Positions 12,187-58,072 of a stretch of 64,000 bases of DNA are shown here, piece by piece. The notes under the pieces are model-generated. The model saw nothing but the letters and a program-made list of their open reading frames with translations. It ran no database searches and was not told where the DNA came from. This DNA is from a bacterium. GTDB lineage: Bacteria; UBA8248; JACPRG01; G963555815. The first letter of the stretch is position 1. Each line of letters opens with the position of its first letter. The position numbers and the translations under genes were made by a program. The DNA is taken from assembly GCA_965261595.1 (NCBI GenBank), contig CBDHDG010000005.1, positions 96,001 through 160,000 of the forward strand. The letters are read 5' to 3'.

Positions 12187-12217
12187 GGTATTCCGTTCGG
12201 TTTGCGATAGTAATATA

Positions 12218-18984: not shown

Positions 18985-19100
18985 CTTGATAGGCCCGGAC
19001 GGCCTGAGCGCGTGGAAGGCCGAATCATTCCAATAGCCAATCCTTGTCCAACCAAATCGACGATCCTGAGAGGCCTAGCCATCCATGACAGTCTACCAGA

Positions 19101-20355: not shown

Positions 20356-20425
20356 ATCCTCTCGAATCGGCAGACAATAGAAGCCCCCTGCCCTGGCGGA
20401 AACTCAGTCGTGGAGACGGACAGGC

Positions 20426-23046: not shown

Positions 23047-23051
23047 TCGTC

Positions 23052-23993: not shown

Positions 23994-24045
23994 TTCCGTT
24001 TTCAGGATGACGAGAAAGTCATCCCTGTAGAGGAGGTTCCCCCTC

Positions 24046-26157: not shown

Positions 26158-26166
26158 GGGGAAGCC

Positions 26167-28503: not shown

Positions 28504-28583
28504 AAGATAAAAACCGTTCACCAAGGATACAGAACTAAGCTGAAATCCGAATCCTTAGTGGGCTTTCAAACGCAACACTTTAA

Positions 28584-30251
28584 CCCGCATTTCCCATATG
28601 GATCATAAGTTTTGTCGGACCGAATGCCGTTTTCTCGTGTAAGATCAAGGTGTTGGCCTCTCCCTGCCATCATCTTGCGAGGGGACCCAATGGGTGAAGC
28701 GAAGAAGGGGGCTTTGAAGATCCGTTTTGACCGTCGGCTGAGGCTTGAGTTTCACGGAACCAGAATCACTTCGGATGCGGGATTGCTGGCCTGCCGGGAG
28801 CTGGATGATGCGCTGGGTTTGACGGTGAGAGCGCCAGTGCAATTGCAAGAGATCCGTCATGGCCGGAACATCCAGCATGAGTTGGCGCCGCTATTGCGCC
28901 AGTCGGTCTATAGCCGCTTGGCAGGGTATGAAGACACCAACGATGCCGAGCGGTTGGCCCAGGACCCCGCGATGCAAGCCGTGGTCGGCCGCCGAGCGCT
29001 TGAGAAGCAGGCGGCGGGCGCCAACACCCTGAGCCGGTTCGAGACCGAGGCTCTCACCAGGGAGGAGAATCTCAAGGGGCCGGAGCGAGCTGAACCGGGA
29101 GTGGGTGGACCGGGCCATGGCACACTCACCCCATCAGCGAATCATCCTGGACATGGACAGCTCGGAAAGCCCCGTCCATGGGGAGCAGGAAGGTACGGCC
29201 TACAACGGCCACTTTCGTTGCACCTGTTATCACCCTCTTTTTTGCTTTAACCAGTTCGGGGACTGCGAAGGGGCGATGTTGCGCCCCGGCAACGTGCACA
29301 GCGCCGATGGCTGGCGCGAGTTGCTTTCGCCCATCGCGGCCCGGTATGAGCGGGCGGGTGTTCGCCGTTACTTCCGAGCCGATGCCGCCTTTGCGCGCCC
29401 GGAGGTCTATGAGTGCCTGGAAGCGCACAGCTTCCATTACGCCATCCGCCTTCCCGCCAACGACGTGGTGCAGCGAGAGATCGACTTCCTCCTCACCCGC
29501 CCGGTCGGTCGCCCGCCCAAGAGACCCATCATCTTCTATTACGACTTCCGGTATCAGGCTGGAAGCTGGGACCGTTCCCGGCGGGTCGTGGCGAAGGTGG
29601 AATGGCACTCAGGCGAACTCTTCCCTCGCGTCGGATTCATTGTCACGAACCTGACGGCTCGACCCGAGGGGGTCGTGCACTTCTACAACCAGCGAGGCAC
29701 AGCCGAGCAATGGATCAAGGAAGGCAAGTACGCCCTGAACTGGACACGCCTTTCCTGTCACCGGTTCGTGTGCAACCAGGTGCGGCTCCTTCTCTTCGTC
29801 CTGGCGTACAACCTGGGCAATTTCCTGCGCAGGCTAGCCTTGCCCAGGGGGCTCAAGCACTGGTCGCTGCGAAGCCTCCAGGTCAAGCTCATCAAAATGG
29901 GCGGGAGGATTGTGCGGCACGCCCGGCAGATCATCTTTCAATTGGCCGAAGTAGCGGTATCCAGGGAAGAGTTCGCCATCATCCTGGACCGAATCAACCG
30001 ATTACGGCCGGTGCCGGTCTAACCTTGTGCAGAGGGTTCCCGGCAGCATGAGGTGATTGGTTAACGGGTTGAACCGCGAACAAAGGGGACCGAAGGGCGA
30101 GGGTCCGCCTTTTGGGGCAGTCGATGGCCGTCAGCACCTTGTTGCGGAGGGTTGGAAGGCTCTTGACAAACCCATCGGAAGGGGATCAACTGGTTTTCAT
30201 CGGGAAAGGGGACCGGAAACCACCCAAGCAAGTTGATATGGGAAATTCCGG
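28584..30251 (+). mobile_element. IS1380-family element, copy 3 (1668 bp)
   Basis: Same ends; a few substitutions (ETEAL, HSFHY). Confidence 0.95.
28690..30022 (+). pseudogene. IS1380 transposase split by a frameshift
   Basis: Same frame change (about 29074-29089). Confidence 0.9.
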
Positions 30252-30465
30252 TTGAAGTACATAACACCGAGATTGTGCTGGCCCAAGGCGTGGCCCTTCA
30301 GTGCAGACTTGCGATACCACTTCACCGCCTGAGCGTAGTCTCGGTCTACACCTCGGCCTTTATCGTACATAGCGCCGAGATTGGATTGCCCAAGGGCGTG
30401 GCCCTTCAGTGCGGCCTTGTGGACCGCCCCTGGGTTATTGGACACTCGGGTGAGGGTATTCGACC

Positions 30466-31374
30466 TCATGCGGCCTCCGCAACTTGAGCGAGTTTTTCCT
30501 GCCTTGCCTGGGCCGGCGTTCGGTAGCCGTAGCCCTCGAGAATCCAATGATGGTTGTACAGGTTCTTGAACTCAAGCAGCGCCCACCGCAGTTCCTCTAC
30601 GGTGGCGAAAGAGCGCACCCACAGGAGATTCTCCTTCAAGATGCGGATGAACCACTCACAGTAGCCATTTCCCTCGGGCGCCCGCACGAAGCTGGGCGAA
30701 CTGGTCATGCCCAGGTAGGCGATCTCCCGCTGAAAGTCATCGGACAGATAGGCGGGGCCGTGGTCGTGACGAACTTTAAGCCCCTCGGCGACATCCGCCT
30801 CCAAGCCGGCGAAGCGCTCGGCGACCCCCTGCCGGATCGGCTCCAGGGCCTCGAAGCGGTTGCCGCTCTTGGCCGCATGGATCCCCACGCAGTCCACCGA
30901 GCAGTGATCCACCGCCACGAACACCGAGGCCATCCCCTCCTCGGTGGTCACCGTCGTCGTCATGTCCGTGCCCCACATTCGGTCGGGCCGCTCGGTGCGG
31001 ATGGTCCCGTTGTGGGCCTTGGGACCTCGGGGTTTGCCCACCCGGTGGGGGGCCTGAAGCCCCGCCTCCCGCATCAGGCGACGCACCCGCTCCTTGCTGG
31101 TGCGGATGCCCGCGAAGCGCAGCCTCGCCCACACCTTGCGGTAGCCCTCGCCATGGAAGGGAGAGTCCTCCAGGACCTGCCGGATGTGGCCGAGGAGTTC
31201 CGCATCGGTGCACGGGCCCACAGGGCCGCGCTTATTGGGCGTGGGGCGTTCATGAACGGGGACCGCCTCTCGCCGCCGTTGCGCGTAGACCGTGGAGCGC
31301 GCCAAGCCCCAAAGGGCGCACACCCGCTTCAGGCCGTAGGCTCTGCCCGTGGAGGTGAAGCGGGCCTGACTCAT
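30466..31374 (-). CDS. IS3 OrfB DDE transposase
   Basis: Same protein as copy A. Confidence 0.9.
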   Translation of the reverse strand: MSQARFTSTGRAYGLKRVCALWGLARSTVYAQRRREAVPVHERPTPNKRGPVGPCTDAELLGHIRQVLEDSPFHGEGYRKVWARLRFAGIRTSKERVRRLMREAGLQAPHRVGKPRGPKAHNGTIRTERPDRMWGTDMTTTVTTEEGMASVFVAVDHCSVDCVGIHAAKSGNRFEALEPIRQGVAERFAGLEADVAEGLKVRHDHGPAYLSDDFQREIAYLGMTSSPSFVRAPEGNGYCEWFIRILKENLLWVRSFATVEELRWALLEFKNLYNHHWILEGYGYRTPAQARQEKLAQVAEAA

Positions 31375-31757
31375 CGCCTCCACCTCCTGCCGGCTAAAGG
31401 GCGGCCGGCCTCCAGGCGGTCGATCTTCTCCCGCAGGACCTCGCCCTCCATCGTGAGTTCGCCCACCTTGGCCTTGAGCCGGGCGTTCTCCTCGGCCCGC
31501 TCATCCGCCGGGCGGGCTTTGAGCGCCGCCTCGCCCCCGCGAAGGAACGCCTCGCGCCAGGCGGAAAGCCGAGCCGCTGTCGTGCCCAACTCGCGGCAGA
31601 GCGTCTCCAGGCTCTCGCCCCGCAAAAGACGCAGGACCGCCTCCCGCTTGCGCTGGCAGGAGAACCGACCCCGCTCACTGCGATGCCCTGGGGCCTTGGC
31701 TCCGTTCGCCCTGCGGGCGCCCTCCGCCAAAGCCCCCTCTTGCTTTTGTTCGTTCAT
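31371..31757 (-). CDS. IS3 OrfA
   Basis: Same protein as copy A. Confidence 0.85.
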   Translation of the reverse strand: MNEQKQEGALAEGARRANGAKAPGHRSERGRFSCQRKREAVLRLLRGESLETLCRELGTTAARLSAWREAFLRGGEAALKARPADERAEENARLKAKVGELTMEGEVLREKIDRLEAGRPLAGRRWRR

Positions 31758-31960
31758 CGCGACACCCCTTTCTCCATGAATCATGGATCAATCGAGTGTC
31801 CAACAAAACCCTAGAGCGGGGGACTTGCTATACCACTTCACCGCCTGAGCGTAGTCTCGGTCCACACCATGACCGTTTTCGTATTCAATTGAGTCTGTCC
31901 AGCTTCGCTGTAGGTCTCGTCCTATTGGGGTGCGGTCAAAGACCTACCGGCGTTTCCGTT

Positions 31961-32473: not shown

Positions 32474-32709
32474 TTGGGCAAACCATGCTTGTCGTAAAGA
32501 ATTCCTTCGGGCGTCCAGGTATCGAGCGTCGGCTGGGACGCGCAGCGCCGACCGATTTCCATCAACCACTCGGCAACGCCCGCGCGGTTCCGCCCTTGGA
32601 ACTGGCGATCCAAACGTTTCTCCATCGCCTTGGTCTTGGTCTCGCCGGTCAAACGCACGAACTCCTCGGCCAAACGGCAGGTCGCTTCATTCTTGATGTT
32701 CAGGCCGAT
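32470..32709 (-). pseudogene. vapB: VapB antitoxin (Rv0623-like) with a degraded start codon (ATC)
   Basis: GLNIKNEATCRLA..RLTGETKT...ILYDKHGLPK. Confidence 0.75.
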
Positions 32710-32863
32710 TCCGATTCTACCATCTCCACGGCCGTTACGCCAAAACCCCGGGGCCGCGGCAAGGGGCGGCAAAAATCAACGATTAAGTCCTTTACCTTTT
32801 CCGCCGAAATGTAAATGGATAAACTTTGGCATCCGTTCGTTCAGTTCGCGCGGAGAGGGCGCA

Positions 32864-33349
32864 ATGCCGTTTACGATCTTCATCAGTAATAGGCCGGGTG
32901 ACATCGACGTCGTTCGGTTCATCGCGTCACAGCTTCAATTGGGCGGGCAAAGACCCCTCATTGCGCATGAGGACCGGCCCCTGAAAGCGGCCCGATCCCT
33001 TCCGAAAATAGTCCGCGAGCGGATTCTGGAGTCCGGGTGCGTCCTGGCGTTGATCTCGAATCAGGGGTCCCAATCGGACCTTGTTCGTCAGGAGGTCGAA
33101 TTCGCGTCCGACAAAAGGCCGATCATCCCCATCGTGCGAGGATCGGTTTCCGCGTCCGGATTGGATTTCCTGCGGGACGCGCAAATCATTCGCTTTTCAG
33201 CCCGGGAGCTCAATCCGTCTTTGGAAGGGCTGATTTCCTGGACGCCCCAAATATCCGTTAAAGGGCGGCCGACGGAAGCCCTCAGACAAATCGCCTTCCT
33301 CACCCTCGGCGCGTTGATGACCTGGCGCATGAGCGGACAACGGGGATGA
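32864..33349 (+). CDS. TIR-domain protein with a hydrophobic C-terminal tail
   Basis: IFISN, CVLALIS, SDLVRQEVEFA (catalytic-type Glu), IIPIV; tail IAFLTLGALMTW; GGAGAGG RBS. Confidence 0.75.
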   Translation: MPFTIFISNRPGDIDVVRFIASQLQLGGQRPLIAHEDRPLKAARSLPKIVRERILESGCVLALISNQGSQSDLVRQEVEFASDKRPIIPIVRGSVSASGLDFLRDAQIIRFSARELNPSLEGLISWTPQISVKGRPTEALRQIAFLTLGALMTWRMSGQRG

Positions 33350-33476
33350 ACGGGGTTCCACCGCGACGGACCCACCCGAAAACCCGTCCTTTCGCGATTG
33401 GAAGAAGGGCGTTACACTAAGCGGCGGCGCTCACCCCGATTCCAATGGGACTTATATATTTGGGTTAATATTGGGC

Positions 33477-33505
33477 TTGACGGAGTTATCGGGCCGCCAT
33501 AACAT
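33477..33505 (+). promoter_or_regulatory. Sigma70 promoter inside the cassette's left end
   Basis: TTGACG-17-TAACAT. Confidence 0.55.
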
Positions 33506-33619
33506 GAAAGGCGACACGAGTAGTGTACAAGACGATTGCAAGCCGAGTGAAACGTGTTCCCTCTGGGAAACACGGCGCGTATTCACCCGTTCAGGGACAA
33601 TCTTCACCGCAAACCGACC

Positions 33620-34060
33620 ATGACCGATCCGGAAATGGAAATTCTACTCAATGATGAATCGAAGAGAATTAACGGCGACATTGTGTGGGGCGGAGACGAG
33701 GACCATTCTCCTGCCGTGCAGTTTTCGGTTGATATCGAATCAGACGACGAATTTCCTCTTGTTGCAAAAGGATGGCACAACCCAGCATCTCAAAAACTTA
33801 ATTACACGATTATTGTTCGACCGGTTGGAAGAATTTATGCACTCGACTTAGGGCAGGAGCATAGAGATTCCAAGGGAGACCGGCACAAACACTATTGGAC
33901 AGAATTGAGGCAAGCTCGGAATACGTACGTGCCAGAAGATATAACGGCCACATCTAATCAGGTAATTGATGCGTGGAATCAATTCTGCACGGAAGCGAAA
34001 CTCCAGCATGCAGGAAGCATGATCTATCCCGCCATTCCCCAGATGGTATTAGGGCTTTAG
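33620..34060 (+). CDS. DUF6978-like protein
   Basis: KRINGDIVW, RIYALDLG..H, HKHYW, W.QFC.EAKL.H; sits directly upstream of a DUF1828-like gene. Confidence 0.65.
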   Translation: MTDPEMEILLNDESKRINGDIVWGGDEDHSPAVQFSVDIESDDEFPLVAKGWHNPASQKLNYTIIVRPVGRIYALDLGQEHRDSKGDRHKHYWTELRQARNTYVPEDITATSNQVIDAWNQFCTEAKLQHAGSMIYPAIPQMVLGL

Positions 34061-34062
34061 TA

Positions 34063-34829
34063 ATGGCGACTCCGTGTGAACAAATTGCCGCTAGCATGGG
34101 TGCACTTTTCGAATGCTCGCAGATCAACAGGTATACGCGCATCAGAACACCGTTTCTGTATCCAGACGGAGATGTGATTGACCTTTATTGGGATGAACAA
34201 GACGGAAACATTACCATAACCGACCTTGGGGGATCGCTTGGATGGCTTTCCATGCAAACCGCAAGCCCCAAAAGACTGCCAAACAAAGACGGCTCATTCA
34301 AGATATATGTACGAATCATGGCATTGAGCAATATCGGGGTATGCTGATGCTTCGAGTTAAGCCGGGAGATGATGTTGCGGACAAGGTTTCAAGACTTTCT
34401 CAAGCAGTAATTAGAGTGACCGATTTATGGTTTACTTTTAGGCATCGAGCGGTTCAGTCAATTACCGATGAAGTAGGGGAATTTTTGGGGGAGAAGTCGA
34501 TAAGATATGACCGAGGGGAACGGTTGCCTGGAAGATCGGGCAATATTTGGAAGGTAGATTTCCACACCCGGACAGCATCCAAGAGTTCACTTGTTAATGT
34601 GCTTTGCTCTGGAAGCAAGGCGGCCGCCCATAAGGTGACTGAGCATATCGTGACACTCTGGCACGACCTGAGCCACCTTAACCTGGGGGAAGAATCATTG
34701 CAGTTCGTTTCGCTCCTTGACGATACAGTAGATGTTTGGACGGATGAAGATATCAAATTGGTATCGGAACTCTCAGACTTATCTTATTGGAGCAGACCCG
34801 ACGAATTTGCGGAAAGATTAGTGGCCTGA
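34063..34829 (+). pseudogene. DUF1828/DUF1829-like protein, frameshifted near 34270
   Basis: RIRTPFLYPDGDVIDLY, ITDLG, then after a 1-nt deletion TAKQRRLI...LPGRSGNIWKVDF...FVSLLDDT. Confidence 0.75.
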
Positions 34830-35030
34830 TTTCCTTCCTACATCTTGTGGTCAGTTAATGTGAAGGCGGGATCTACATATGGTGGCTCACTGTGTCAAGG
34901 GCATAATCACGAAAGAAATGAATGAGAAAGAACAGGATCGCCCCGAGCAAGACTTGGTATTCAGGCTAAAATTGCAAGCCAATCCGGCATTAACCCAAAT
35001 ATATAAGTCCCATTCCAATCAGGGCGGTTT

Positions 35031-36047
35031 ATGAAACTCGGCATCGACCTCGACGGCCGCATTCCCATTTCGGACATGGTGGAGATGTGCCAAGTCGCCG
35101 ACGCGGCGGGGTTCCACTCCGTCTGGGCGGACCAGCACCTGGGCTACCGGGACGCGGTCTCGACCTCCGTCGCCTTCCTCGGCGCGACGAAACACGTGCG
35201 GGTCGTCCCCACCGCCCTCAGCCCCTACGTCGCCCACCCCCTCTACTGGGCCATGGGCGTCGCCACCCTGGCCGAGTGCGCACCGGGCCGGATCGCGCTG
35301 TGCGCCGGGACGGGCAACCCGAACGTCATGGCCGAGATGGGTCTGTCGCCCAAGAAACCCCTCGCCTCCATGCGAGAGATGATCACCGCCACCCGGCGGC
35401 TCTGGGACGCCGGCCGGCAGCGCGTCGAGTTTCGCGGCGAGACGCTGAACCTTTACGGCGCTCACATCGATTTCGACCTCCCGGAGGCGAGAATTCCCAT
35501 CTACCTGGCGGCCGTGGGACCGAAGATGTATCGGCTCGCCGGGGAGGCGGCCGACGGCGTCGTCCTTTCCGCCGGGGTCTCCGCGCCTTACATTCAGTGG
35601 GTGCTGGAGCAGGTCGAAAAGGGCCGAAGGAAGCGGGACGGCGGCGGGGGGGGCGGCGCCGGGAACGGCTTCCTGGTCGCGGGGCTGATCGTGACCTCGA
35701 TCTTCGAGACGTATGAAGAGGCGCTTGCGGCCAGTCAGGCCGGTCTCGCCTACCTCCTCCGGAACCCGGCCCTCAAGGCGAGCCACGAAGTCAGCGGGGC
35801 GAAACTGGACCTGGACGCCATCAACGACGCCTTCGTTAAAGAGGACCGGGAGGCGATCCGGCGGCTCATCCCCGAGGAGGTCGTCCACGCGTACAGCGTC
35901 ACCGGAACGCCCGAGATGGCGGCGGACCGAATCACGGAGTTCATCGATGCGGGTCTCGAGGTCCCCGTCCTGGCCTTGCGCGGGACGGCGGAAGAGAGGA
36001 AAAAGGCCCTGCGGCTTTTGGCCGATGGGCTCGCATCCAACCCATAA
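35031..36047 (+). CDS. LLM-class flavin-dependent oxidoreductase
   Basis: AGFHSVWADQH, ATLAECAPGR, PIYLAAVGPKM..LAGEAADGV. Confidence 0.92.
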   Translation: MKLGIDLDGRIPISDMVEMCQVADAAGFHSVWADQHLGYRDAVSTSVAFLGATKHVRVVPTALSPYVAHPLYWAMGVATLAECAPGRIALCAGTGNPNVMAEMGLSPKKPLASMREMITATRRLWDAGRQRVEFRGETLNLYGAHIDFDLPEARIPIYLAAVGPKMYRLAGEAADGVVLSAGVSAPYIQWVLEQVEKGRRKRDGGGGGGAGNGFLVAGLIVTSIFETYEEALAASQAGLAYLLRNPALKASHEVSGAKLDLDAINDAFVKEDREAIRRLIPEEVVHAYSVTGTPEMAADRITEFIDAGLEVPVLALRGTAEERKKALRLLADGLASNP

Positions 36048-36062
36048 GGGAGGGCGATTTTC

Positions 36063-36530
36063 ATGAGCGACGGGCACGAAAAATTCCTGGCGATGGCTAT
36101 CGAGGAGGCGCGCAAGGGACTACAGAAGGGAGAGCAGCCTTTCGGCTCGGTCATCGTCCGCAACGGGGAGGTCGTCGGCCGGGCCTACAACACCGTCAAC
36201 TCCTCCGGGGACCCGACGACCCACGCGGAAACGTCCGCCGTTCGCGACGCTTCAGCCAACCTGAAGGGTTCCGACTGGAAGGAGTGCACCCTCTACACCT
36301 CGTGCGACCCCTGCCCGATGTGCTGCGGGGCGACGCTGTTTTCCGGCATCGAGCGGCTGGTCATAGGCGCGCGCTCCGCGAAACTGGCGGAGATCCGGGG
36401 CCAATCCCCGAGGACCTACTCCGCCGAGAACCTCGCCGGGCAGATGCACATGAAGCTCGAGGTCATCCGGGGGGTTTTGCAAACCGAGGCCGAGGAGGTC
36501 CTGGCGAAATTCGACTGGTCCACATTGTAG
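36063..36530 (+). CDS. Zinc-dependent nucleoside/nucleobase deaminase, copy 1
   Basis: PFGSVIV, DPTTHAE, CDPCPMC. Confidence 0.92.
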   Translation: MSDGHEKFLAMAIEEARKGLQKGEQPFGSVIVRNGEVVGRAYNTVNSSGDPTTHAETSAVRDASANLKGSDWKECTLYTSCDPCPMCCGATLFSGIERLVIGARSAKLAEIRGQSPRTYSAENLAGQMHMKLEVIRGVLQTEAEEVLAKFDWSTL

Positions 36531-36596
36531 GGTGCTGTCCGCGCTGGGAGGCGACGCTCTACAGATGGCCGTGAAAGACTTACGCGCGTCGTATCC

Positions 36597-36708
36597 GGGC
36601 GGGCATCTTGCCCGGCCCAAAGACTTAAGGACGCATGAGAAACATGACACCCCCTCGGATCTATCCGGTTCCAAGACATCGGGCAGCGAAGACAGGAGAA
36701 TCCCCATG
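36597..36708 (+). repeat. Conserved leader unit 1 (hybrid REP hairpin, leader, RBS)
   Basis: GGGCATCTTGCCCGGCCCAAAGACTTAAGGACGCATGAGAAACATGACACCC...ACAGGAGAATCCCCATG. Confidence 0.9.
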
Positions 36709-37350
36709 AGCGTCGACCACGAGAAGTTCATGGCCCTGGCCGTCGAGGAGTCGCGGGCCGGGCTCCGGGCGGGCGACCGGCCCTTCGGGTCCGTCGTCGT
36801 CCGGGACGGGGAGGTCGTCGGGCGCGCATACGCCAATCCCCGCTCGACCGGGGACCCGACGGCGCACGCGGAGGTGATGGCCATTCGCGACGCGGCGGCG
36901 AACCTGAAAAGCCTGTCCCTGAAGGGCTGCACCCTCTACACCTCGTGCGACCCCTGCCCGATGTGCTGCGGCGCCATACTCTTTTCCGGCATCGACACCC
37001 TCGTCGTAGGGGCCCGCTCCGCCGCCCTGGCGCGCATCTCCAATCGAACCCCGAGAACTTACACGGCCGAAGGCCTCAGCGAACAGATGAACATGACACT
37101 CGAGGTCATCCGGGGGATTTTGGAGACCGAGGCCAAGAAAGTCCTGGAAGAATTCGGCTGGTCCAAGGAGATAGGGTGCTGTCCGCGCAATTTATCAATG
37201 ATCGTGAAAGGCTTACGCGCGTCGTATCCGGGCGGGCAAGGGGTCAACCGACCCGCTGCCCGCCCTACCGGATATTGGAAGAGTCAGCCCGTACACGGCC
37301 CGGTAGGCCGGGCATCCTGCCCGGCGCCAACTCGCACCCCGATTCGGTAG
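36706..37350 (+). CDS. Zinc-dependent deaminase, copy 2 (ancestral stop at 37172-37174 now out of frame)
   Basis: DPTAHAEVMA, CDPCPMC; homology ends at FGWSKE about 37170 and the frame reads on through the REP spacer. Confidence 0.88.
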   Translation: MSVDHEKFMALAVEESRAGLRAGDRPFGSVVVRDGEVVGRAYANPRSTGDPTAHAEVMAIRDAAANLKSLSLKGCTLYTSCDPCPMCCGAILFSGIDTLVVGARSAALARISNRTPRTYTAEGLSEQMNMTLEVIRGILETEAKKVLEEFGWSKEIGCCPRNLSMIVKGLRASYPGGQGVNRPAARPTGYWKSQPVHGPVGRASCPAPTRTPIR

Positions 37351-37460
37351 GCCGGGCATCCTGCCCGGCCCAAAGTGTAAGGGCGTATGAGAAACATGAC
37401 ACCCCTTCGGATCCACCCGGTTCCAAAACATCGACCACCGGAAACAGGAGAATCCCCATG
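37303..37460 (+). repeat. Two GTAG-type REP hairpins plus conserved leader unit 2
   Basis: GTAGGCCGGGCATCCTGCCCGGC at 37303-37325 and 37347-37369, then the same leader. Confidence 0.9.
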
Positions 37461-37958
37461 AGCGTCGACCACGAGAAGTTCATGGCCCTGGCCATCGAGG
37501 AATCCCGCGCCGCCGTCCGGAGCGGAGAGCGGCCCTTCGGGTCGGTCATCGTCCGGGACGGAGAGGTCGTGGGCCGGGGCCGCAACATCGTCAACTCCAC
37601 CGGAGACCCCACGGCCCACGCGGAGACCTCGGCCATCCGCGACGCGGCGGCCAACCTCAAGACCCCAAAATTGACCGGGTGCACCCTCTACACCTCGTGC
37701 CACCCCTGTCCCATGTGCGCCGGCGCCACGCTTTGGTCCGGGGCGGGGACCATCGTCATCGGCGCGAGCCCGGCCGCCCTCAAGCGCGAATCCGGAGCGA
37801 TTTACGACATGAACGATTACACCATCGAGCGCGTCGTCGAGCTGATCGGCCTGGACCTGGAGGTCGTCAACGGGGTGCTGGAAGAGGAAGCCGAGGCCGT
37901 CTTCCGGGAGTACAAGGACTGGGGCGACGCCTCGCCCAATGTCCTCCGGTCGGAATAG
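37458..37958 (+). CDS. Zinc-dependent deaminase, copy 3
   Basis: DPTAHAETSA, CHPCPMC. Confidence 0.92.
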   Translation: MSVDHEKFMALAIEESRAAVRSGERPFGSVIVRDGEVVGRGRNIVNSTGDPTAHAETSAIRDAAANLKTPKLTGCTLYTSCHPCPMCAGATLWSGAGTIVIGASPAALKRESGAIYDMNDYTIERVVELIGLDLEVVNGVLEEEAEAVFREYKDWGDASPNVLRSE

Positions 37959-38003
37959 CGCCTCGCCCTGCCTGTTTTGAAAACACCGCTTGTCCACCGG
38001 CCG

Positions 38004-38161
38004 GCAGGCCGGGCATCTTGCCCGGCGCCAACTCGCAACCCGATCGGTAGGCCGGGCATCCTGCCCGGCCCAAAGACTTAAGGACGCATGAGAAACATGA
38101 CACCCACGCGGATCTATCCGGTTCCAAAACATCGGACAGCGAAGACAGGAGCATCCCCGTG
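38004..38161 (+). repeat. Two REP hairpins plus conserved leader unit 3
   Basis: GCAGGCCGGGCATCTTGCCCGGC at 38004-38026 and GTAGGCCGGGCATCCTGCCCGGC at 38047-38069, then the same leader. Confidence 0.9.
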
Positions 38162-38656
38162 AGCGGCGATCACGAAAAATTCATGGCCCTGGCCATTCAG
38201 GAAGCGGAGGACGGCGTGAAGGAGGGGCACCTGCCTTACGGGGGCGTCATCGTCAAGGACGGCGAGGTCCTCGGCCGGGGGAAAAGCGTCGGCATCTCCC
38301 TGAAGGATCCCACGTGCCACGCGGAGATGATGGCGATCCGGGAGGCGGCGAAGAAGATGCGCTCGGGGGACATGCGAGGCTGCGTCCTGTACGCCAACTG
38401 CGACCCCTGTCCCATGTGCGCCGGCGCCGCCATCTACTCCGGCGTCGGAACCGTCGTCATCGGCGCGGGACCCGAGGCCCTGCGGCGCTGCTCCAACGGG
38501 CGGTATGACCTGGGGGACTACACCATCGAACGGCTCGTCGGGCTGACGGGCATGAATGTGAAGGTCATCCGCGGGGTCCTGGAGGAAAGGGCCGAAGCCG
38601 TCTTCAAGGACTTCGGCGACTGGGACATCGCCGCGCCCCCCGATCCAACCGCGTGA
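38159..38656 (+). CDS. Zinc-dependent deaminase, copy 4
   Basis: PYGGVIV, DPTCHAEMMA, CDPCPMC; GTG start. Confidence 0.92.
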   Translation: MSGDHEKFMALAIQEAEDGVKEGHLPYGGVIVKDGEVLGRGKSVGISLKDPTCHAEMMAIREAAKKMRSGDMRGCVLYANCDPCPMCAGAAIYSGVGTVVIGAGPEALRRCSNGRYDLGDYTIERLVGLTGMNVKVIRGVLEERAEAVFKDFGDWDIAAPPDPTA

Positions 38657-38693
38657 TTTCCCCGTAGACTCTTCTCTTTGCGAAAACCTCGGG

Positions 38694-39370
38694 TCAGGAC
38701 GGCGGCGGTCCGGCCGGCGCGCCTTTTCGCCGAACCCAGATTTCAAAATCCGGGTCTTCGTCCGAAGCCCCCGGTCCGAGCCAGTCTCCGGGCGGAAGAG
38801 GGGCGTAGTCCCGGAAAACCCGGTCCCGCAACCGGGTCGATCCCTCTCCGGCGAGCCGTACAGGCTGAACCGTGCTCTTCCAGAAAAGCGACTTGCGGTT
38901 CACCACCAGAAAGCGGACGCGCGGCAGCCTCTCGACGATGCTCTCCTGCATCTCCGGCGTCAGCAAACCCCAGGTCGTGGCGTTATAGCGGGTGACGCTC
39001 GGCCTTCCCGTCCAGATGTAGATGCTCGACATTCCCGGCATGGTGAAAATCGGCTCGCCCGGCGCCGTGCGTCTCCGGAGATACCGGATCAGGGCCTCCA
39101 ATTTGGGGGCGATCTCCGATTGAAACCGGACCCCCGCGGCGGACGGCGCGGACAGGGGGATTCCCTTTTGGCGCTCCTTCGCCAGGGGAATCACCCCCAG
39201 GCCCAGGAACGGCAGCAGGAAGGCGAGCGTCGCCGCCGGGAACACCAGCTCGGCGATCGAGCGGGACACCGGAAGATTGAGAGGCCGCCGGTTTTTCTCG
39301 GGCAGCTTGCGTCGATCCAGCAGCGCATACGTAAGCGCGCCGGCCAGGAGGACGACGAGGGGCGTCGCAG
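38694..39370 (-). pseudogene. C-terminal remnant of a membrane protein (possibly GT-C like), cut by IS3
   Basis: TM segments followed by YLRRRTAPGEPIFTMP...IYIWTGR; N-terminus replaced by the IS. Confidence 0.55.
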
Positions 39371-39436
39371 TCCCCCGCTCTAGGGTTTTGTTGGACACTC
39401 GATTGATCCATGATTCATGGAGAAAGGGGTGTCGCG

Positions 39437-39823
39437 ATGAACGAACAAAAGCAAGAGGGGGCTTTGGCGGAGGGCGCCCGCAGGGCGAACGGAGCCAAGG
39501 CCCCAGGGCATCGCAGTGAGCGGGGTCGGTTCTCCTGCCAGCGCAAGCGGGAGGCGGTCCTGCGTCTTTTGCGGGGCGAGAGCCTGGAGACGCTCTGCCG
39601 CGAGTTGGGCACGACAGCGGCTCGGCTTTCCGCCTGGCGCGAGGCGTTCCTTCGCGGGGGCGAGGCGGCGCTCAAAGCCCGCCCGGCGGATGAGCGGGAC
39701 GAGGAGAACGCCCGGCTCAAGGCCAAGGTGGGCGAACTCACGATGGAGGGCGAGGTCCTGCGGGAGAAGATCGACCGCCTGGAGGCCGGCCGCCCTTTAG
39801 CCGGCAGGAGGTGGAGGCGATGA
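39437..39823 (+). CDS. IS3 OrfA
   Basis: As the other copies. Confidence 0.85.
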   Translation: MNEQKQEGALAEGARRANGAKAPGHRSERGRFSCQRKREAVLRLLRGESLETLCRELGTTAARLSAWREAFLRGGEAALKARPADERDEENARLKAKVGELTMEGEVLREKIDRLEAGRPLAGRRWRR

Positions 39824-40728
39824 GTCAGGCCCGCTTCACCTCCACGGGCAGAGCCTACGGCCTGAAGCGGGTGTGCGCCCTTTGGGGCTTGGCGCGCTCC
39901 ACGGTCTACGCGCAACGGCGGCGAGAGGCGGTCCCCGTTCATGAACGCCCCACGCCCAATAAGCGCGGCCCTGTGGGCCCGTGCACCGATGCGGAACTCC
40001 TCGGCCACATCCGGCAGGTCCTGGAGGACTCTCCCTTCCATGGCGAGGGCTGCCGCAAGGTGTGGGCGAGGCTGCGCTTCGCGGGCATCCGCACCAGCAA
40101 GGAGCGGGTGCGTCGCCTGATGCGGGAGGCGGGGCTTCAGGCCCCCCACCGGGTGGGCAAACCCCGAGGTCCCAAAGCCCACAACGGGACCATCCGCACC
40201 GAGCGGCCCGACCGAATGTGGGGCACGCACATGACGACGACGGTGACCACCGAGGAGGGGATGGCCTCGGTGTTCGTGGCGGTGGATCACTGCTCGGTGG
40301 ACTGCGTGGGGATCCATGCGGCCAAGAGCGGCAACCGCTTCGAGGCCCTGGAGCCGATCCGGCAGGGGGTCGCCGAGCGCTTCGCCGGCTTGGAGGCGGA
40401 CGTCGCCGAGGGGCTTAAAGTTCGTCACGACCACGGCCCCGCCTATCTGTCCGATGACTTTCAGCGGGAGATCGCCTACCTGGGCATGACCAGTTCGCCC
40501 AGCTTCGTGCGGGCGCCCGAGGGAAATGGCTACTGTGAGTGGTTCATCCGCATCTTGAAGGAGAATCTCCTGTGGGTGCGCTCTTTCGCCACCGTAGAGG
40601 AACTGCGGTGGGCGCTGCTTGAGTTCAAGAACCTGTACAACCATCATTGGATTCTCGAGGGCTACGGCTACCGAACGCCGGCCCAGGCAAGGCAGGAAAA
40701 ACTCGCTCAAGTTGCGGAGGCCGCATGA
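39820..40728 (+). CDS. IS3 OrfB transposase with D-to-H at the first DDE aspartate
   Basis: GAC to CAC at 40228-40230; also Y to C in GEGYRK. Confidence 0.85.
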   Translation: MSQARFTSTGRAYGLKRVCALWGLARSTVYAQRRREAVPVHERPTPNKRGPVGPCTDAELLGHIRQVLEDSPFHGEGCRKVWARLRFAGIRTSKERVRRLMREAGLQAPHRVGKPRGPKAHNGTIRTERPDRMWGTHMTTTVTTEEGMASVFVAVDHCSVDCVGIHAAKSGNRFEALEPIRQGVAERFAGLEADVAEGLKVRHDHGPAYLSDDFQREIAYLGMTSSPSFVRAPEGNGYCEWFIRILKENLLWVRSFATVEELRWALLEFKNLYNHHWILEGYGYRTPAQARQEKLAQVAEAA

Positions 40729-40774
40729 GGTCGAATACCCTCACCCGAGTGTCCAATAACCCAGGGGCGGTCCA

Positions 40775-40905
40775 AGTTGAGTTAAACTCAGCCATCCAGA
40801 AAACCCCGCTCTTGAGAAGATTTTCCAAAATGGCCAAGTGACTAAAGCAAAAAGCCCAAAAATCACAACCAAGATCAGCAGTTCCTGCAGTCCAAGTCCA
40901 AACAT
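40775..40905 (-). pseudogene. Small membrane protein N-terminus truncated by IS3
   Basis: MFGLGLQELLILVVIFGLFALVTWPFWKIFSRAGFSGWLSL. Confidence 0.6.
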
Positions 40906-40936
40906 GTTTTTCTCCTTCTCAACTGTACGATATCTA

Positions 40937-41719
40937 TCAAACGAAAACATCCCCACCGTTCACCAGCAGGGTCTGGCCCGTCATGAACGCGCTGGCGTCG
41001 GAGGCCAGGAAAACGACAGTCCCGACCAGGTCCTCGGGCTGTTGATGGCGCTTCAGGGAGCGTGTCCCGACGATCCGCGCCTCCATCTTATTCCACCACT
41101 CCGCCTTGTCCGGGTCCTCCGTCAGTCTCCGGTTCCCCTCGCTCATCGTGAAGCCGGGCGCGACGGCGTTCACCCGGATGTCGGACTCCCCCAGCTCGCG
41201 CGCCGCCGCGCGCGTCATCCCGATGACGGCGCCCTTGGAGGCCACATAGTGAAGGAAGCCGGGGACCCCCTTGTGCACCGTGTCCGAGGCGAAGTTGATG
41301 ATGGAGCCGCCGCCGGCTTTCCGCATGGCCGGCGCGGCGGCCTTCATCCCGAGGAACACGCCCCGGACGTTGACGGCCATCACCCGGTCCCACTCCTCGA
41401 TGGGGATGTCTTCGAGGGACTGGTCTCTCTTGAGGTTCGCGAAGAGCGCGGCGTTGTTCACCCAGACATCGATCCGGCCGAATTCCGCCGCGACGCCTTC
41501 CGCCAGGGCTTTGACGGCGGATTCCTCCGCGACGTCCGTCTCGAAGGCCCGGGCGTTCCCGCCCGCGGCCGCGATCTCCTCCGCCGCCGGGGCCGCGTCC
41601 TGAACGTCGGCCAGGGCCACGTCCGCCCCCGCCCGCGCCAGCCCCGCCGCAACGACCTTGCCGATCCCCTGGGCCGCCCCCGTGACGACGGCCACCCGGC
41701 CTTTCAGATCCGCCTCCAT
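40937..41719 (-). CDS. SDR-family oxidoreductase
   Basis: TGAAQGIG, NNAA, YVASK, VNAVAPG. Confidence 0.95.
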   Translation of the reverse strand: MEADLKGRVAVVTGAAQGIGKVVAAGLARAGADVALADVQDAAPAAEEIAAAGGNARAFETDVAEESAVKALAEGVAAEFGRIDVWVNNAALFANLKRDQSLEDIPIEEWDRVMAVNVRGVFLGMKAAAPAMRKAGGGSIINFASDTVHKGVPGFLHYVASKGAVIGMTRAAARELGESDIRVNAVAPGFTMSEGNRRLTEDPDKAEWWNKMEARIVGTRSLKRHQQPEDLVGTVVFLASDASAFMTGQTLLVNGGDVFV

Positions 41720-42032: not shown

Positions 42033-43478
42033 TCAACCCGCCCACCGCTTGAAATCCTCGGGACTCAGGTACTCTTCGAGGGGCGTCTCCTGGAAACGGG
42101 CGCGCATGAAGAGCGGCGGGACGCCTTCCTGCTCGATGGTCTTGTACTTCCAGGGGATGGTGGCGTCGGTGATCATCTTGGCCTTGACGACCGAGTCCCC
42201 CGGAATGAGCGAGCGCACGCCCGCGATGGGGTTGTTCCGGTGGGTCTTGGCCTCGGGCAGGATGTGGACCTGCTCCTTGGGGTTGCACCGGGTGGTGACG
42301 GCCCAGTCGATGGCGTCCATGTCGTAGATGTCCACGTCCTCGTCCACCAGCGTGAGGCTCTCCAGATACACCGAGAACCCGAACGCCGCCAGGGCCACCT
42401 GGATCTGCTGGCCCTCCCGGTCCGGGGTGTCCTTTTTGAGCTGGAGGATGCCGTGGTGCCAGTGGGCCGAGCCGCGCGTGAGCGCAGCGTCCACGACGAA
42501 CGTGGGCTCGATGGCCTTGACGTACTGGTAGAAGGCCACGTCGTTGGAGATGCGGATGTTGTAGTTCTCTTTCGTCCCGGGGACGATGTTGTAGCTCATG
42601 GGCTGGGCGCAGTGCGTGACGCCGGTGATCCGGAAGATGGGCTTCCGCTGGGGGATGCTCAGGTATTTCAAGAATTCCGGCCAGGGCCCCTCCCATTCCT
42701 CGTCGTAAGGCGGCTCGACGACGCCCTCGATGACGATGTTCGCCGACGCCGGGACCTCCAGGTCCACGGTCTTGCACTTGACCAGCTCGACGGGCTCGCC
42801 CTTCAGGACCCCCGCCAGGGCGAATTCCTCCCGGCCGAAGGGGAGTTTGGTCACCCCGGAAAGGTAGATCTCGGCGTCCATGCCGAAGATGAGCGCCACG
42901 GGGAAGGGCGCGTTCCGCTCCTTGGCCTTCCGGAAGTGCATCCCGATGTGGGCCTCGGGCCGGATGTTGATGACCGTGCGGTTGTCATCGAGGAGCATGT
43001 TCCGGTACACGCCCATGTTCCGCGTGCCGGTTTCCGGATCCTTGGTGATGACGGCGGCCTGGAAGTACTTCCCCCCGTCATCGAGCGACGCCTGGATGGA
43101 AGGGACAAAGCTCAGGGCGTCGAACCCTTCGGTGTGGACGACCTCCTGGCAGGGGCCGTCGGAGACCACGACGGGGTCCACCTGCTTTTCCATCGCGGCC
43201 AGGAAGGCGCGCTTGAACGCGATGTCCTCCTCCGGCATGCCCAGGAGCCGCTTGACCCGGGAGCGCTCGCTGAACAGCGTCCCCCCGACGGGCATCGTGT
43301 ATCCCTTGACGTTTTGAAACAGGACCGCCGGGGTGTACCGGAGCTGGTCCAGCTTCATGAAGATCCCGGCGACCTCGTGGACGCTGTCCACCTCGCGCTC
43401 GATAACGACGACCTCGCCCTCGTCGATCATCCGCTGAAAGGTCGCCCCGATGCCGACGGCTGTCTGGATTTGTGTCAT
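42033..43478 (-). CDS. UbiD-family (prFMN-dependent) decarboxylase
   Basis: NMGVYR, CKTVDLEVPA, EGPWPEF, VDEDVDIYD...WAVTTR. Confidence 0.92.
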   Translation of the reverse strand: MTQIQTAVGIGATFQRMIDEGEVVVIEREVDSVHEVAGIFMKLDQLRYTPAVLFQNVKGYTMPVGGTLFSERSRVKRLLGMPEEDIAFKRAFLAAMEKQVDPVVVSDGPCQEVVHTEGFDALSFVPSIQASLDDGGKYFQAAVITKDPETGTRNMGVYRNMLLDDNRTVINIRPEAHIGMHFRKAKERNAPFPVALIFGMDAEIYLSGVTKLPFGREEFALAGVLKGEPVELVKCKTVDLEVPASANIVIEGVVEPPYDEEWEGPWPEFLKYLSIPQRKPIFRITGVTHCAQPMSYNIVPGTKENYNIRISNDVAFYQYVKAIEPTFVVDAALTRGSAHWHHGILQLKKDTPDREGQQIQVALAAFGFSVYLESLTLVDEDVDIYDMDAIDWAVTTRCNPKEQVHILPEAKTHRNNPIAGVRSLIPGDSVVKAKMITDATIPWKYKTIEQEGVPPLFMRARFQETPLEEYLSPEDFKRWAG

Positions 43479-43942
43479 CCTCTTTCACTCCGAACACGGA
43501 AGAACAAGAAACCCTGCGGCCGGACGCGCTATCGTCCAATCCTTCCCTCCGCCCGCCGGGTGAAGGGTAATGACCGACAGGCCGAAAACACTTTCTACAC
43601 ACAAAACGGCACGACACCCTTGACAGGGTCTACCTTGTCCCGTGCATGTGATTGCTGTATCATAAAAGGTGCACTCTCAAGAGAGTCAACGGCGAAGGAG
43701 CGACCCTTCCCGCCAGGTGTCCCTCTCTTGCGGCGGCCCGGACCGGGGCCGCGGGCCGCAGGCGTCCGCCAAGGCCTTTGCTCACTTCCCGGCGAGGCGT
43801 TATGGCTCCTGAGAATCCACACATCAAGTCGCCCCTCCCATGGGAAGACGTGTTCACGAACGAGTTTCTATAAGGCATCAAGCTCCCCACCCAGTCCTCC
43901 CAGGGAGGGCGCAACAGGCCAAGCGTCCCGGAATGGAGTCGA

Positions 43943-44875
43943 ATGAATGAGATCCGGAAGGTCGCCGTCATCGGCGCGGGGACCATGGGTAACGGCATCG
44001 CCCTGTGGTTCGCCAAGGCCGGCTTGGGCGTGAGCTTTCGGGACGTGGATCATGAGTTTCTGGACCAGGCCCGGAAGACGCAGGATGAGACCTTGAAGGC
44101 CCTATCGGCCGCGGGCGCCGTGGCCGAGGGGGAAGAAGAAGCCATCCGGGGTCGCATCCGGGGGACGACGGACATGGCCGAGGCCCTGGAGGGAGTGGAT
44201 TTCGTTCTGGAGGCCGTCCCGGAAGCGCTCGAGCTCAAGCGTTCCGTCTTCGCTGAGCTGGAAATGGTGGCTCCGCCCGGGATTCCGCTGGCCTCCAATA
44301 CCTCGGGGATCAGCATCTCCCTCATCGCCGAGGGCGTCAAGGACCCCTCCCGCGTCGTCGGCATGCACTGGTGGAACCCGCCCCACGTGGTCCGGGTCAT
44401 CGAGGTCATCCGGGGTCGGGGGACGTCTGACGCCACCGTGGAGGCCACCCAAGCGCTGGTGGAGCAAATCGGCAAGAAGCCGGTCCTGGTCAAGAAGGAC
44501 GTGCCGGGATTCCTGGGGAACCGCATCCTGTACGCCCTGCTTCGGGAGGCCATGTACTGTTACGAACAGGGGGTGGCGGACGCGAAGGATATCGACCTCC
44601 TGGTGAGCGAGGCCTTCGCCTCGAAGCTCGCCTTCATGGGACCGATGGCCCTGTTGGACTTGGCGGGTCTCGACGTTTACCACAATGTGTCCCAGTACCT
44701 TCACGAGGGTCTTTGCGACGCAAAGGAGGTCAGCCGGACCATCGCGGAGAAGCTCGCTCGCAACGAGTTGGGTCTGAAAACGAAGAAAGGGTTTTACGAT
44801 TACTCTGACGTGGACATCCCAGAACTGATGCGGAAGAGGTCGGCCCAGATGGAGGCGCTCCTCAACCTCATGTGA
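43943..44875 (+). CDS. 3-hydroxyacyl-CoA dehydrogenase family protein
   Basis: VIGAGTMG, EAVPE, ASNTS, MHWWNPP, GFLGNRI. Confidence 0.93.
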   Translation: MNEIRKVAVIGAGTMGNGIALWFAKAGLGVSFRDVDHEFLDQARKTQDETLKALSAAGAVAEGEEEAIRGRIRGTTDMAEALEGVDFVLEAVPEALELKRSVFAELEMVAPPGIPLASNTSGISISLIAEGVKDPSRVVGMHWWNPPHVVRVIEVIRGRGTSDATVEATQALVEQIGKKPVLVKKDVPGFLGNRILYALLREAMYCYEQGVADAKDIDLLVSEAFASKLAFMGPMALLDLAGLDVYHNVSQYLHEGLCDAKEVSRTIAEKLARNELGLKTKKGFYDYSDVDIPELMRKRSAQMEALLNLM

Positions 44876-44922
44876 GACGGGATATCCCCGGAATCAGGCG
44901 CGCAGAATGGCCGAACCTCAAA

Positions 44923-46553: not shown

Positions 46554-46577
46554 CGGACGGTTCAAGGAGGGTGTGAC

Positions 46578-47576: not shown

Positions 47577-47724
47577 CGAGGCGCAGGCGGGGACTCCTCG
47601 TTCTCAGGTCGGCTCCGGCGGTTTGCGGACCTCCGGGCGCGGGGGGGGGGGGGGTCGACCGGGGATCTACGTCCCCGACAATCAGCGACTCCGCGGGCGG
47701 GTTCGCAGAATGGGTTTGTGTTCA

Positions 47725-50180: not shown

Positions 50181-50227
50181 GCCTGTCTGGCCCAAAGTAT
50201 CGCTCCCGGCCTGAACGAGGTTAGAGA

Positions 50228-51708: not shown

Positions 51709-51754
51709 TCCCCCGCGTCTTTGATCGACACGCAATTTTCGTAGAGGTGACCAC

Positions 51755-57883: not shown

Positions 57884-58072
57884 GGACCTCCCTCCGTGAT
57901 TCGTGAACGATCTATGATTCCGGCACTTTGGCACGTTTCGCGGATAAACCCAAGAAGAGCAAACGCGAAATAAGGCGATTCGATTGGGTCTTTTATTGAA
58001 CATCAGTCCCCCGCTCTAGGGTTTTGTTGGACACTCGATTGATCCATGATTCATGGAGAAAGGGGTGTCGCG

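Follow-up and report, generated by a model that had tools for sequence, protein, structure and literature searches.

Hairpin-bearing repeats in the spacers of a bacterial multi-deaminase operon

Do palindromic repeats between paralogous genes record how the genes multiplied, or did they enter an operon that already existed? The question is raised by a 64,000-nucleotide stretch of bacterial DNA (contig CBDHDG010000005.1, positions 96,001 to 160,000, forward strand; hereafter the window), in which a gene for an F420-type oxidoreductase of the luciferase-like monooxygenase (LLM) class is followed by four genes for zinc deaminases of the cytidine deaminase (CDA) fold, here named d1, d2, d3 and d4. 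An earlier interpretation made from the DNA letters alone (the sequence-only reading) had described a similar hairpin-bearing unit before d2, d3 and d4, and had proposed that recombination linked to repetitive extragenic palindromes (REPs) and their transposases (RAYTs) expanded or homogenised the array. We consider it probable that the operon is old and conserved, that the spacers before d2 to d4 were filled recently by the hairpin repeat and kept alike by gene conversion, and that the repeat seemingly promotes gene loss, all by known processes.

Operon layout and the repeated unit

The arrangement of four deaminases with HAE and PCxxC motifs behind an LLM gene is confirmed by the open reading frames (ORFs) and by matches to PF00383 (86.4-93.3 bits for d1 to d4, cut-off 25) and Bac_luciferase. 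Residues H54, A55, E56, C84, P85, M86 and C87 (d1 numbering) are invariant across the four proteins, which thus all keep the catalytic Glu (E56) and the zinc ligands (H54, C84, C87), as had been stated. The three other deaminases share 66, 57 and 45% of their residues with d1. The LLM product scores 158.5 bits with the NCBIfam Mer equivalog model, below its cut-off of 276, and many F420 LLM subfamilies match it too. Coordinates of all features are collected in Table 1.

The d1 gene starts 15 nucleotides after the LLM gene, without the repeated leader. The palindrome GCCGGGCATCYTGCCCGGC (at most two mismatches) occurs five times in the window, at 36598, 37307, 37351, 38008 and 38051, all within the array; 0.01 copies are expected in shuffled sequence, and none of 100 shuffles reached five. 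Each copy is a hairpin with a 9-bp GC-rich stem and a 3-nucleotide loop. The 5' tag is GTAG in three of the five, GCAG in one and absent from one, and a search with the GTAG-prefixed palindrome (at most three mismatches) gave four matches, three of them with an intact GTAG. The three leaders do contain the hairpin that had been described for them, but the count is five, as the hairpins before d3 and before d4 are head-to-tail tandem doublets, 43-44 nucleotides apart.

Measured from the last hairpin to the start codon (113-114 nucleotides), the leaders are identical at 93/114, 102/114 and 98/114 positions in pairwise comparison (82, 90 and 86%), whereas the d2, d3 and d4 genes have a DNA identity of 0.64-0.69, a third-position identity of 0.61-0.62 and a synonymous divergence (dS) of 0.61-0.69. 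Both the presence of a similar unit of about 114 nucleotides, hairpin plus leader, before copies 2 to 4 and its greater likeness compared with the genes are therefore borne out. A leader profile finds these three copies in the window (E values 1e-34, 4e-34 and 7e-34) and no other full-length match. The unit had been taken for about 110 bp of non-coding DNA; such a stretch exists, but in a sliding comparison the similar block begins near -120 and ends near +45, counted from the start codon, and therefore takes in the first ~15 codons. The d2 and d3 sequences are identical from -13 to +31. A further repeated module follows the stop codons of both d1 and d2, with 17 nucleotides at 100% and 41 nucleotides at 93% identity. 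The earlier observation of repeated leaders is correct, and the repetition is well above chance.

Table 1. Positions of the operon genes, their spacers and the flanking insertion sequences in the window.
Feature	Position	Strand	Remarks
LLM-class oxidoreductase, F420-type (Mer-like)	35031..36047	+	first gene of the operon; Pfam Bac_luciferase 4.4e-52
d1, CDA-fold zinc deaminase, 155 residues	36063..36530	+	PF00383 1.5e-26; 93.3-86.4-bit range for all four deaminases
d1-d2 spacer	36528..36705	+	post-stop module (36528-36544, 36565-36605); imperfect hairpin 36598-36616 without GTAG; leader with Shine-Dalgarno (SD) sequence
d2 deaminase	36706..37350	+	core 36706-37170 plus 59-codon read-through; PF00383 1.4e-24
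d2-d3 spacer	37172..37457	+	post-stop module (37172-37188, 37198-37238); hairpin A (37230-37265); head-to-tail GTAG hairpin doublet (37303-37325, 37347-37369); leader 37370-37457
d3, CDA-fold deaminase, 166 residues	37458..37958	+	PF00383 9.6e-27
d3-d4 spacer	37959..38158	+	doublet 38004-38026 (GCAG), 38047-38069 (GTAG); leader 38070-38158
d4, CDA-fold deaminase, 165 residues, GTG start	38159..38656	+	PF00383 3.9e-25
IS3-family insertion sequence (IS), left flank of array segment	30420..31825	-	1406-nucleotide inverted repeat, 100% identical to 39369-40774
IS3-family IS, right flank	39369..40774	+	stands where locus L001 has UbiD and two FAD (flavin adenine dinucleotide) oxidoreductase genes

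Ages of the genes and of the repeat

Relatives were collected in two ways. A profile search gave 5387 proteins at E <= 1e-20 among 8000 scored candidates, and a scan of genome contigs gave 26 loci (L001, L002 and so on), which were compared with the window proteins by tblastn. A first tree of 124 rows contains the best 120 of the 5387 relatives and the four window proteins. A second tree of 50 rows contains 16 array copies from the window, L001, L002, L003 and L006, single copies from L004, L005, L007, L010 and L014, together with 29 database proteins chosen by hand. Both trees separate d1, d2, d3 and d4 into four clades that each contain close orthologues of their own (91-98% identity). The supports in the 50-row tree are 97/88 for d1, 98/93 for d2 (6 rows), 98/90 for d3 and 100/100 for d4. 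The d1 clade takes in L001_p1, L002_p2 and L003_p2, and a fifth paralogue clade, dX (support 100/100), is found in L002 and L003. With dS among the paralogues at 0.61-0.77, the four deaminases are, as judged from the trees and divergences, old and anciently diverged.

The operon itself is conserved. L001, the nearest relative of the window, has the order LLM-d1-d3-d4, with 92-98% protein identity, and L002 and L003 have LLM-dX-d1-d3-d4, with 65-77% identity; L006 has LLM-d3 at a contig end. An LLM gene adjoins the deaminases in all four of these loci. L004 and L005 have one deaminase copy each, without an LLM gene, and L007-L026 have single distant homologues (<=55% identity over partial lengths). 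The spacers measure 45, 158 and 55 nucleotides in L002 and 30, 49 and 31 nucleotides in L003, and no match to the hairpin or to the leader profile was found in the spacers of L002, L003 and L006. Operon and gene order must therefore predate the repeat. Since the paralogues are old and stand in the same order in relatives with short, unrelated spacers, the repeat did not build the array, and the proposed expansion by the repeat is not borne out.

It follows that a recently expanded or assembled cassette array, with deaminases duplicated or gathered together with their leaders in an integron-like manner or by unequal crossing-over, is very improbable. All genes do lie in one orientation with a repeated, palindrome-bearing spacer between them, and the copy number does vary among relatives, a comparison that the sequence-only reading had called for: L001 has three deaminases, and L002 and L003 have four, the fourth being dX, another paralogue than the d2 of the window. 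However, the four genes belong to four old clades, the order d1, d3, d4 is kept in L001, L002 and L003, two of which are repeat-free, and no tyrosine recombinase was found among the scanned window ORFs. The differences in copy number are, from the junction in L001 and a remnant in L002 (both described below), best read as losses. An integron array, with an adjacent IntI tyrosine recombinase and unrelated promoterless cassettes that each end in an attC site, was rejected in particular, as there is no recombinase among the scanned ORFs and the genes are paralogues that keep their order without repeats; attC core motifs were not formally searched.

The repeat has a much narrower distribution than the genes. 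Across the loci the matches to the leader profile are confined to the three copies of the window and to the d3 and d4 leaders of L001. Between the window and L001, dS is 0.098 for the LLM gene, 0.126 for d1, 0.209 for d3 (with a nonsynonymous divergence, dN, of 0.039) and 0.106 for d4; dN/dS is 0.24, 0.25, 0.19 and 0.10, respectively. Orthologous leaders differ at 8/114 positions (7%) before d4 and at 23/116 positions (20%) before d3, close to the dS of the gene that follows in each case, and the coding sequence is more conserved than the leader. When leader identity is set against synonymous divergence, as had been suggested, paralogous leaders are thus far closer than the genes that they precede, and orthologous leaders diverge at approximately the synonymous rate. 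Because of this rate the leader is no strongly constrained regulatory element. It appears to be young and roughly neutral, and the common ancestor of the leaders would date to about the split of the window and L001 lineages.

The leaders are mosaics. In segment A (44 columns, from the 3' hairpin arm to ATGACACCC) the d2 and d4 leaders of the window show 0/44 differences, whereas the d4 leader and its L001 orthologue show 5/44. In segment B (the next 53 columns) the relation is reversed, with 5/53 differences between the d2 and d4 leaders and 1/53 between the d4 leader and the L001 orthologue (Fisher p = 0.015 for the contrast between segments). The pattern points to gene conversion between non-adjacent spacers, and conversion would also account for the stretch around the start codon in which d2 and d3 are identical. 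The homogenisation of the spacers by recombination, the other half of the earlier proposal, is borne out by these mosaic segments.

The spacers also bear marks of structural change. The d1-d3 spacer of L001 is a chimera of the 5' part of the d1-d2 spacer and the middle and 3' part of the d2-d3 spacer of the window, with the switch point inside the repeated 41-nucleotide module; a loss of d2 by deletion between direct repeats would give such an arrangement. P0122, a 213-residue ORF of the d3 cluster, contains a translated spacer of the window's d1-d2 type directly before d3, and would be either a second d2-less allele, with the junction in the leader or the 5' coding region, or an assembly collapse. 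Doublets of the hairpin are present in the window where L001 has singles, and the orthologous d3-d4 spacer of L001 contains one hairpin. The d1-d2 spacer of the window is without ~120 nucleotides that the d2-d3 spacer has between the GGGCGGGCA arm and the last hairpin, a loss that has fused two hairpins, the left arm of one now being followed by the right part of the other. Finally, d2 of the window has one extra base before the former TAG, and a further 59 codons, encoded by the spacer and two hairpins, carry its frame to the TAG of a GTAG tag, whereas its relatives P0002, P0005 and P0006 end in ...WSKE.

Two observations can be placed beside these changes. In the d1-d3 spacer of L002 (L002 10469-10626, 158 nucleotides) ~24 residues are encoded that resemble the C-terminal end of a deaminase of the 155-residue class. 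The stretch probably remains from a paralogue that was lost where the window has d2; its likeness to the d2 type was judged by eye. In this enzyme family the active site is capped by the C-terminal tail (excerpt of PMC9739398), so that the d2 protein of the window, its tail longer by 59 residues, may be impaired; alternatively, the extra base may be a sequencing error.

We propose the following course of events. An old, vertically kept catabolic operon would have consisted of an F420-type LLM gene followed by anciently diverged CDA-fold deaminases related to guanine and guanosine deaminases. In each deaminase, a zinc ion held by His/Cys/Cys and a Glu acting as proton shuttle would exchange a ring amino group for oxygen, most likely on different amino-substituted N-heterocycles. 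In the lineage of the window and L001 the spacers before d2, d3 and d4 would then have acquired a unit of ~165 nucleotides, composed of ~30 nucleotides, the GTAG-tagged GC-rich palindrome, an 85-nucleotide leader with the SD sequence, and the first ~15 codons. We infer that gene conversion between spacers, anchored on the conserved gene ends, spread the unit and kept its copies alike. The repeats may now be substrates for recombination and slippage, by which the d2 cassette was removed, doublets were made or collapsed, and parts of spacers were deleted. In the mRNA the stable 9-bp hairpins between cistrons probably serve as 3' barriers or as sites of processing, so that the levels of the single deaminases become independent of each other, by analogy with what is proposed for REPs, namely 'transcription termination, mRNA stabilization' (excerpt of PMC3733652).

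Candidate roles of hairpin, leader and enzymes

In form the hairpins resemble GTAG-type REPs: they are GC-rich stem-loop palindromes of the 20-40 bp class, and three of the five have GTAG at the end. They might therefore belong to a genuine, genome-wide family of such REPs that a RAYT encoded elsewhere placed in the spacers, the leaders being alike because they moved with a reiterated REP cluster as its flanks. The 9-bp stem with its 3-nucleotide loop and the GTAG directly 5' of it agree with this proposal, as do the lineage-specific occurrence of the hairpin (in the window and L001, not in L002, L003 and L006) and the end of the extended d2 ORF at the TAG of GTAG, a REP feature described in a section of PMC3733652. 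Against it, none of the five hairpins lies outside the 2.6-kb array in the 64-kb window, and the 26 loci yield a single further hairpin match, in L001 at the orthologous position; REPs reach high copy numbers, above 100 per genome according to an excerpt of PMC2817692. A Pfam scan of 50 window ORFs (11 + 39) revealed no Y1 transposase, and the likeness continues for 85 nucleotides past the hairpin into coding sequence, which transposition of a hairpin leaves unexplained. The doublets are head-to-tail, and head-to-tail REP dimers are a rare kind (excerpt of PMC3733652). The d3-d4 spacer gave no match in plasmid and phage collections. The REP/RAYT link of the sequence-only reading agrees with the form of the hairpin; copy number and transposase, as far as the 64-kb window and its 50 scanned ORFs show, and the orientation of the doublets do not speak for it, and we consider a true REP family unlikely here.

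Selection rather than conversion could in principle keep the copies alike, if the leader were a cis-regulatory unit (a riboswitch-like RNA, an attenuator, an operator, or an upstream ORF coupled to the deaminase start) that puts d2 to d4 under common control. The last ~80 nucleotides of the five leaders are free of insertions and deletions, an upstream ORF of 21-24 codons is open in 5/5 leaders with its TGA overlapping the deaminase start codon, and the consensus fold includes a possible pairing of UUCC with GGAG of the SD sequence. These features are outweighed by the near-synonymous divergence of orthologous leaders (7% and 20% against dS 0.106 and 0.209) and by the absence of the leader from L002, L003 and L006, which have the same operon. 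The folding of the leader, which had been put forward as a check, speaks against regulation as well: the leaders fold no better than shuffled sequences (z-scores +0.59, -0.80 and -1.30), and compensatory change is seen in 0/28 predicted pairs. In every frame the 15 variable sites are spread evenly (5/5/5) over the three codon positions, and the first ATG of the upstream ORF is lost in one leader. We therefore regard selected common control as quite improbable.

Several other readings of the leader were tried and dropped. The upstream ORF was not accepted as coding, in view of the even spread of variable sites over codon positions. An extension of the deaminase N-terminus through the leader was rejected, as a 1-nucleotide indel in the leader shifts the frame and there is no in-frame start; the long ORF calls P0002, P0122 and P0019 are over-extended starts. 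Rfam gave no match in the whole window at gathering scores. At E <= 1 six weak matches (CRISPR-DR29, snoR9, SorX) were obtained in 35900-38800, all far below their cut-offs, the best with 21.4 bits against a cut-off of 39. Folded as whole spacers, d2-d3 and d3-d4 (z = -2.36 and -2.19) are more stable than shuffles because of the hairpins, and d1-d2 is not (z = +0.35). A terminator scan of 34800-38900 gave two sites, both on the minus strand and fewer than the shuffle mean of 3.6.

A number of points weigh against the course of events that we propose. The hairpin scan covered the 64-kb window and the 26 loci, and a true REP family with a RAYT elsewhere, unlikely as we think it is, would lie beyond it. 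L001 and the members of the protein clusters come from metagenome assemblies; an assembly collapse across a 45-nucleotide identical stretch could mimic the d2-less allele of P0122, and the doublets and the lost d2 stop of the window could be assembly or sequencing errors. The conversion signal consists of 11 differences in one pair of comparisons (p = 0.015), and the leader is present in two genomes only, which gives its comparison with dS little power. As to a role of the hairpins in the mRNA, the scan of 34800-38900 gave 0 promoter-like sites (shuffle mean 0.4), and the hairpins have no T-run.

The nearest solved relatives of the deaminases are plant guanosine deaminase (GSDA; 1.4e-33) and Bacillus subtilis guanine deaminase (GuaD; 7e-30), followed by TadA enzymes. 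An identity as TadA was rejected on scores of 84.8, 84.6, 78.0 and 79.5 bits with NF008113, below its cut-off of 150. Several relatives, among them P0003, P0032 and P0045, are named 'tRNA(Arg) A34 adenosine deaminase TadA' in several sources; as the window proteins score 78-85 bits against a cut-off of 150, they have probably been over-annotated. Relatives with 90% identity or more carry the NCBI name Nitrospinota.

In Arabidopsis GSDA (AtGSDA) the substrate site includes an anchoring Asn69, and a C-terminal Tyr with a free carboxylate caps the active site (excerpt of PMC9739398). The residue aligned with Asn69, 11 places upstream of the His of HAE, is Asn in 14/14 rows of the d1 clade and 9/9 rows of the d3 clade, Ala in 6/6 rows of the d2 clade and Ser in 12/12 rows of the d4 clade. 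HAE is kept in 11/12 rows of the d4 clade; P0109 is without it. The C-termini read ...DWSTL (d1), ...WSKE (d2, with 59 more residues in the window), ...NVLRSE (d3) and ...PPDPTA (d4), and none ends in a GSDA-type Tyr. The clade-specific anchor residues and C-terminal tails, together with purifying selection, favour action on different substrates over redundancy. A panel of enzymes for different substrates, as the sequence-only reading had it, is thus plausible from pocket residues that differ by clade and from dN/dS of 0.10-0.25; the substrates themselves are a prediction from sequence.

The neighbours of the operon in L002 and L003 include two EamA transporters, a molybdenum subunit of the xanthine dehydrogenase (XDH) family, an FkbM methyltransferase and DHOD-like genes, with an Amidohydro_2 gene in L002 only. 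We speculate, on what we consider rather long odds, that the LLM gene and its three to five CDA-fold deaminases in fixed order constitute an undescribed catabolic pathway of uncultured bacteria. Such a pathway would remove several amino groups from an N-heterocycle that is poly-aminated or modified (a pterin, a diaminopurine or a triazine-like compound), each group or intermediate having its own enzyme, before or after ring reduction and molybdenum-dependent hydroxylation, and the hairpin repeat within the operon would tune or prune the deaminase set in one lineage. A literature search on deaminase paralogues, the operon and the F420 LLM found no paper on such an operon.

Genomic setting and comparison with known systems

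The homology of the window with L001 runs from 35009 to 39005. About 5 kb of L001 that encode UbiD and two FAD-dependent oxidoreductases (L001 3609-8769) are missing from the window at 39005-40940, and an IS copy is present there. Its OrfA and OrfB match HTH_Tnp_1 and rve, and the left IS copy (30420-31825) is identical to it. On the other side, a low-GC insert (0.47-0.53) at 33434-35024, which is absent in L001 and has 36-nucleotide inverted repeats (92% complementary), ends 7 nucleotides before the LLM start. From the insert before the LLM gene and the missing ~5 kb with its IS we conclude that the native upstream region and the downstream neighbours were replaced in the window.

The IS3-family element is present in four 1406-nucleotide copies that are 100% identical (14543-15947, 30420-31825, 39369-40774 and 58005-59410), and two inverted copies bracket the 7.5-kb array segment in the manner of a composite transposon. 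The inspected IS3 flanks showed no evident target-site duplications. For a minus-strand ORF (38694-39398) that extends into the end of the IS, Pfam, NCBIfam and PADLOC gave no match. Three further IS copies of ~1.68 kb with a DDE_Tnp_1_4 transposase are 99-100% identical to each other (9889-11574, 17316-18990 and 28579-30264). A 128-nucleotide direct repeat (12218-12345 and 12587-12714, 94% identity, 369 nucleotides apart) is located at and partly within a CARDB-domain ORF (12303-12761), its first copy beginning in ORF 12005-12301. The ranges 19345-28353 and 42033-54052 contain many genes for the import and degradation of N-heterocycles and aromatic compounds: a Bmp/PnrA-type ABC transporter, hydantoinase A and B, two UbiD decarboxylases, an NMT1-type ABC transporter, and a molybdenum enzyme of the XDH family with an FAD subunit. 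A CN hydrolase gene (56948-58003) lies outside these ranges.

The low-GC insert encodes a candidate defence pair, PDC-M24A (33554-34060, 4.4e-50) and PDC-M24B. The latter is found in two frames, with profile positions 1-75 in ORF 33973-34347 and 69-254 in ORF 34242-34829, which indicates a frameshift near 34250-34290. An ORF with a TIR domain (TIR_2, 2.4e-9; 32630-33349) lies between the left IS copy and this insert and has no PADLOC match.

The sequence-only reading had mentioned defence by nucleotide depletion as a further possibility. An anti-phage system that depletes or alters nucleotides could be suspected from the PDC-M24A/B pair and the TIR-domain ORF just upstream of the operon, and from weak matches of the deaminases to models of defence dCTP deaminases. 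These matches are, however, confined to the zinc motif and far below the cut-offs: NF041025 gives 19.5-28.3 bits against a cut-off of 400, and the PADLOC dCTPase model 18.5-26.4 bits over ~45 of 630 profile positions. Moreover, the PDC-M24 pair belongs to a separate low-GC insert that L001 does not have, and the conserved neighbours of the operon in L002 and L003 are catabolic enzymes and transporters. The proposal is not borne out by these matches, and a defence function has very little probability.

An old, probably catabolic operon with young and seemingly converted spacers has consequences beyond this locus. Since the non-coding DNA between old paralogues can be far younger than the genes, repeat-flanked paralogues should not be taken to imply recent expansion. 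Intergenic repeats within an operon may act as break points for the loss of cassettes. The LLM-plus-multi-deaminase operon offers a tractable target for those who look for new substrates among the small CDA-fold deaminases, enzymes that find wide use in base editors and in biocatalysis.

The behaviour of the spacers resembles the concerted evolution of rRNA-operon spacers, as described in an excerpt of PMC8022953, in that copies within a genome are partly closer than orthologues and form mosaics. Unlike in those operons, the converted tracts here are spacers and 5' gene ends, and the old paralogous genes are not homogenised. Our literature search on gene conversion yielded general papers only. 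With GTAG-type REPs, as portrayed in parts of PMC3733652 and PMC2817692, the hairpins share the short GC-rich palindrome, the 5' GTAG and the intergenic location; both also form dimers, with 24-25 nucleotides between partners, and can give a flanking ORF its TAG stop. In contrast to REPs, the hairpins were found only inside one operon (64 kb scanned), are arranged head-to-tail and form part of a longer unit that extends into coding DNA, and the scan of 50 ORFs revealed no RAYT.

The deaminases share with B. subtilis GuaD (PDB 1wkq) and Arabidopsis GSDA (PDB 7dbf) the CDA fold, the size (155-166 residues), the His/Cys/Cys zinc site and the catalytic Glu. As in AtGSDA, d1 and d3 keep the anchoring Asn, but the capping C-terminal Tyr of GSDA is missing from d1 to d4 (excerpt of PMC9739398). 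Unlike GuaD and GSDA, d2 and d4 have Ala and Ser, respectively, at the anchor position, and three to five paralogues stand in one operon with an LLM oxidoreductase. Poly-amino heterocycles can be deaminated stepwise, as in the conversion of melamine to ammeline and ammelide, and the known triazine enzymes mostly belong to the amidohydrolase superfamily, not to the CDA fold. Triazine pathways nevertheless resemble the present operon in having several deaminases in one catabolic context that act on amino-substituted N-heterocycles, and they may serve as a model for the retention of three to five paralogues.

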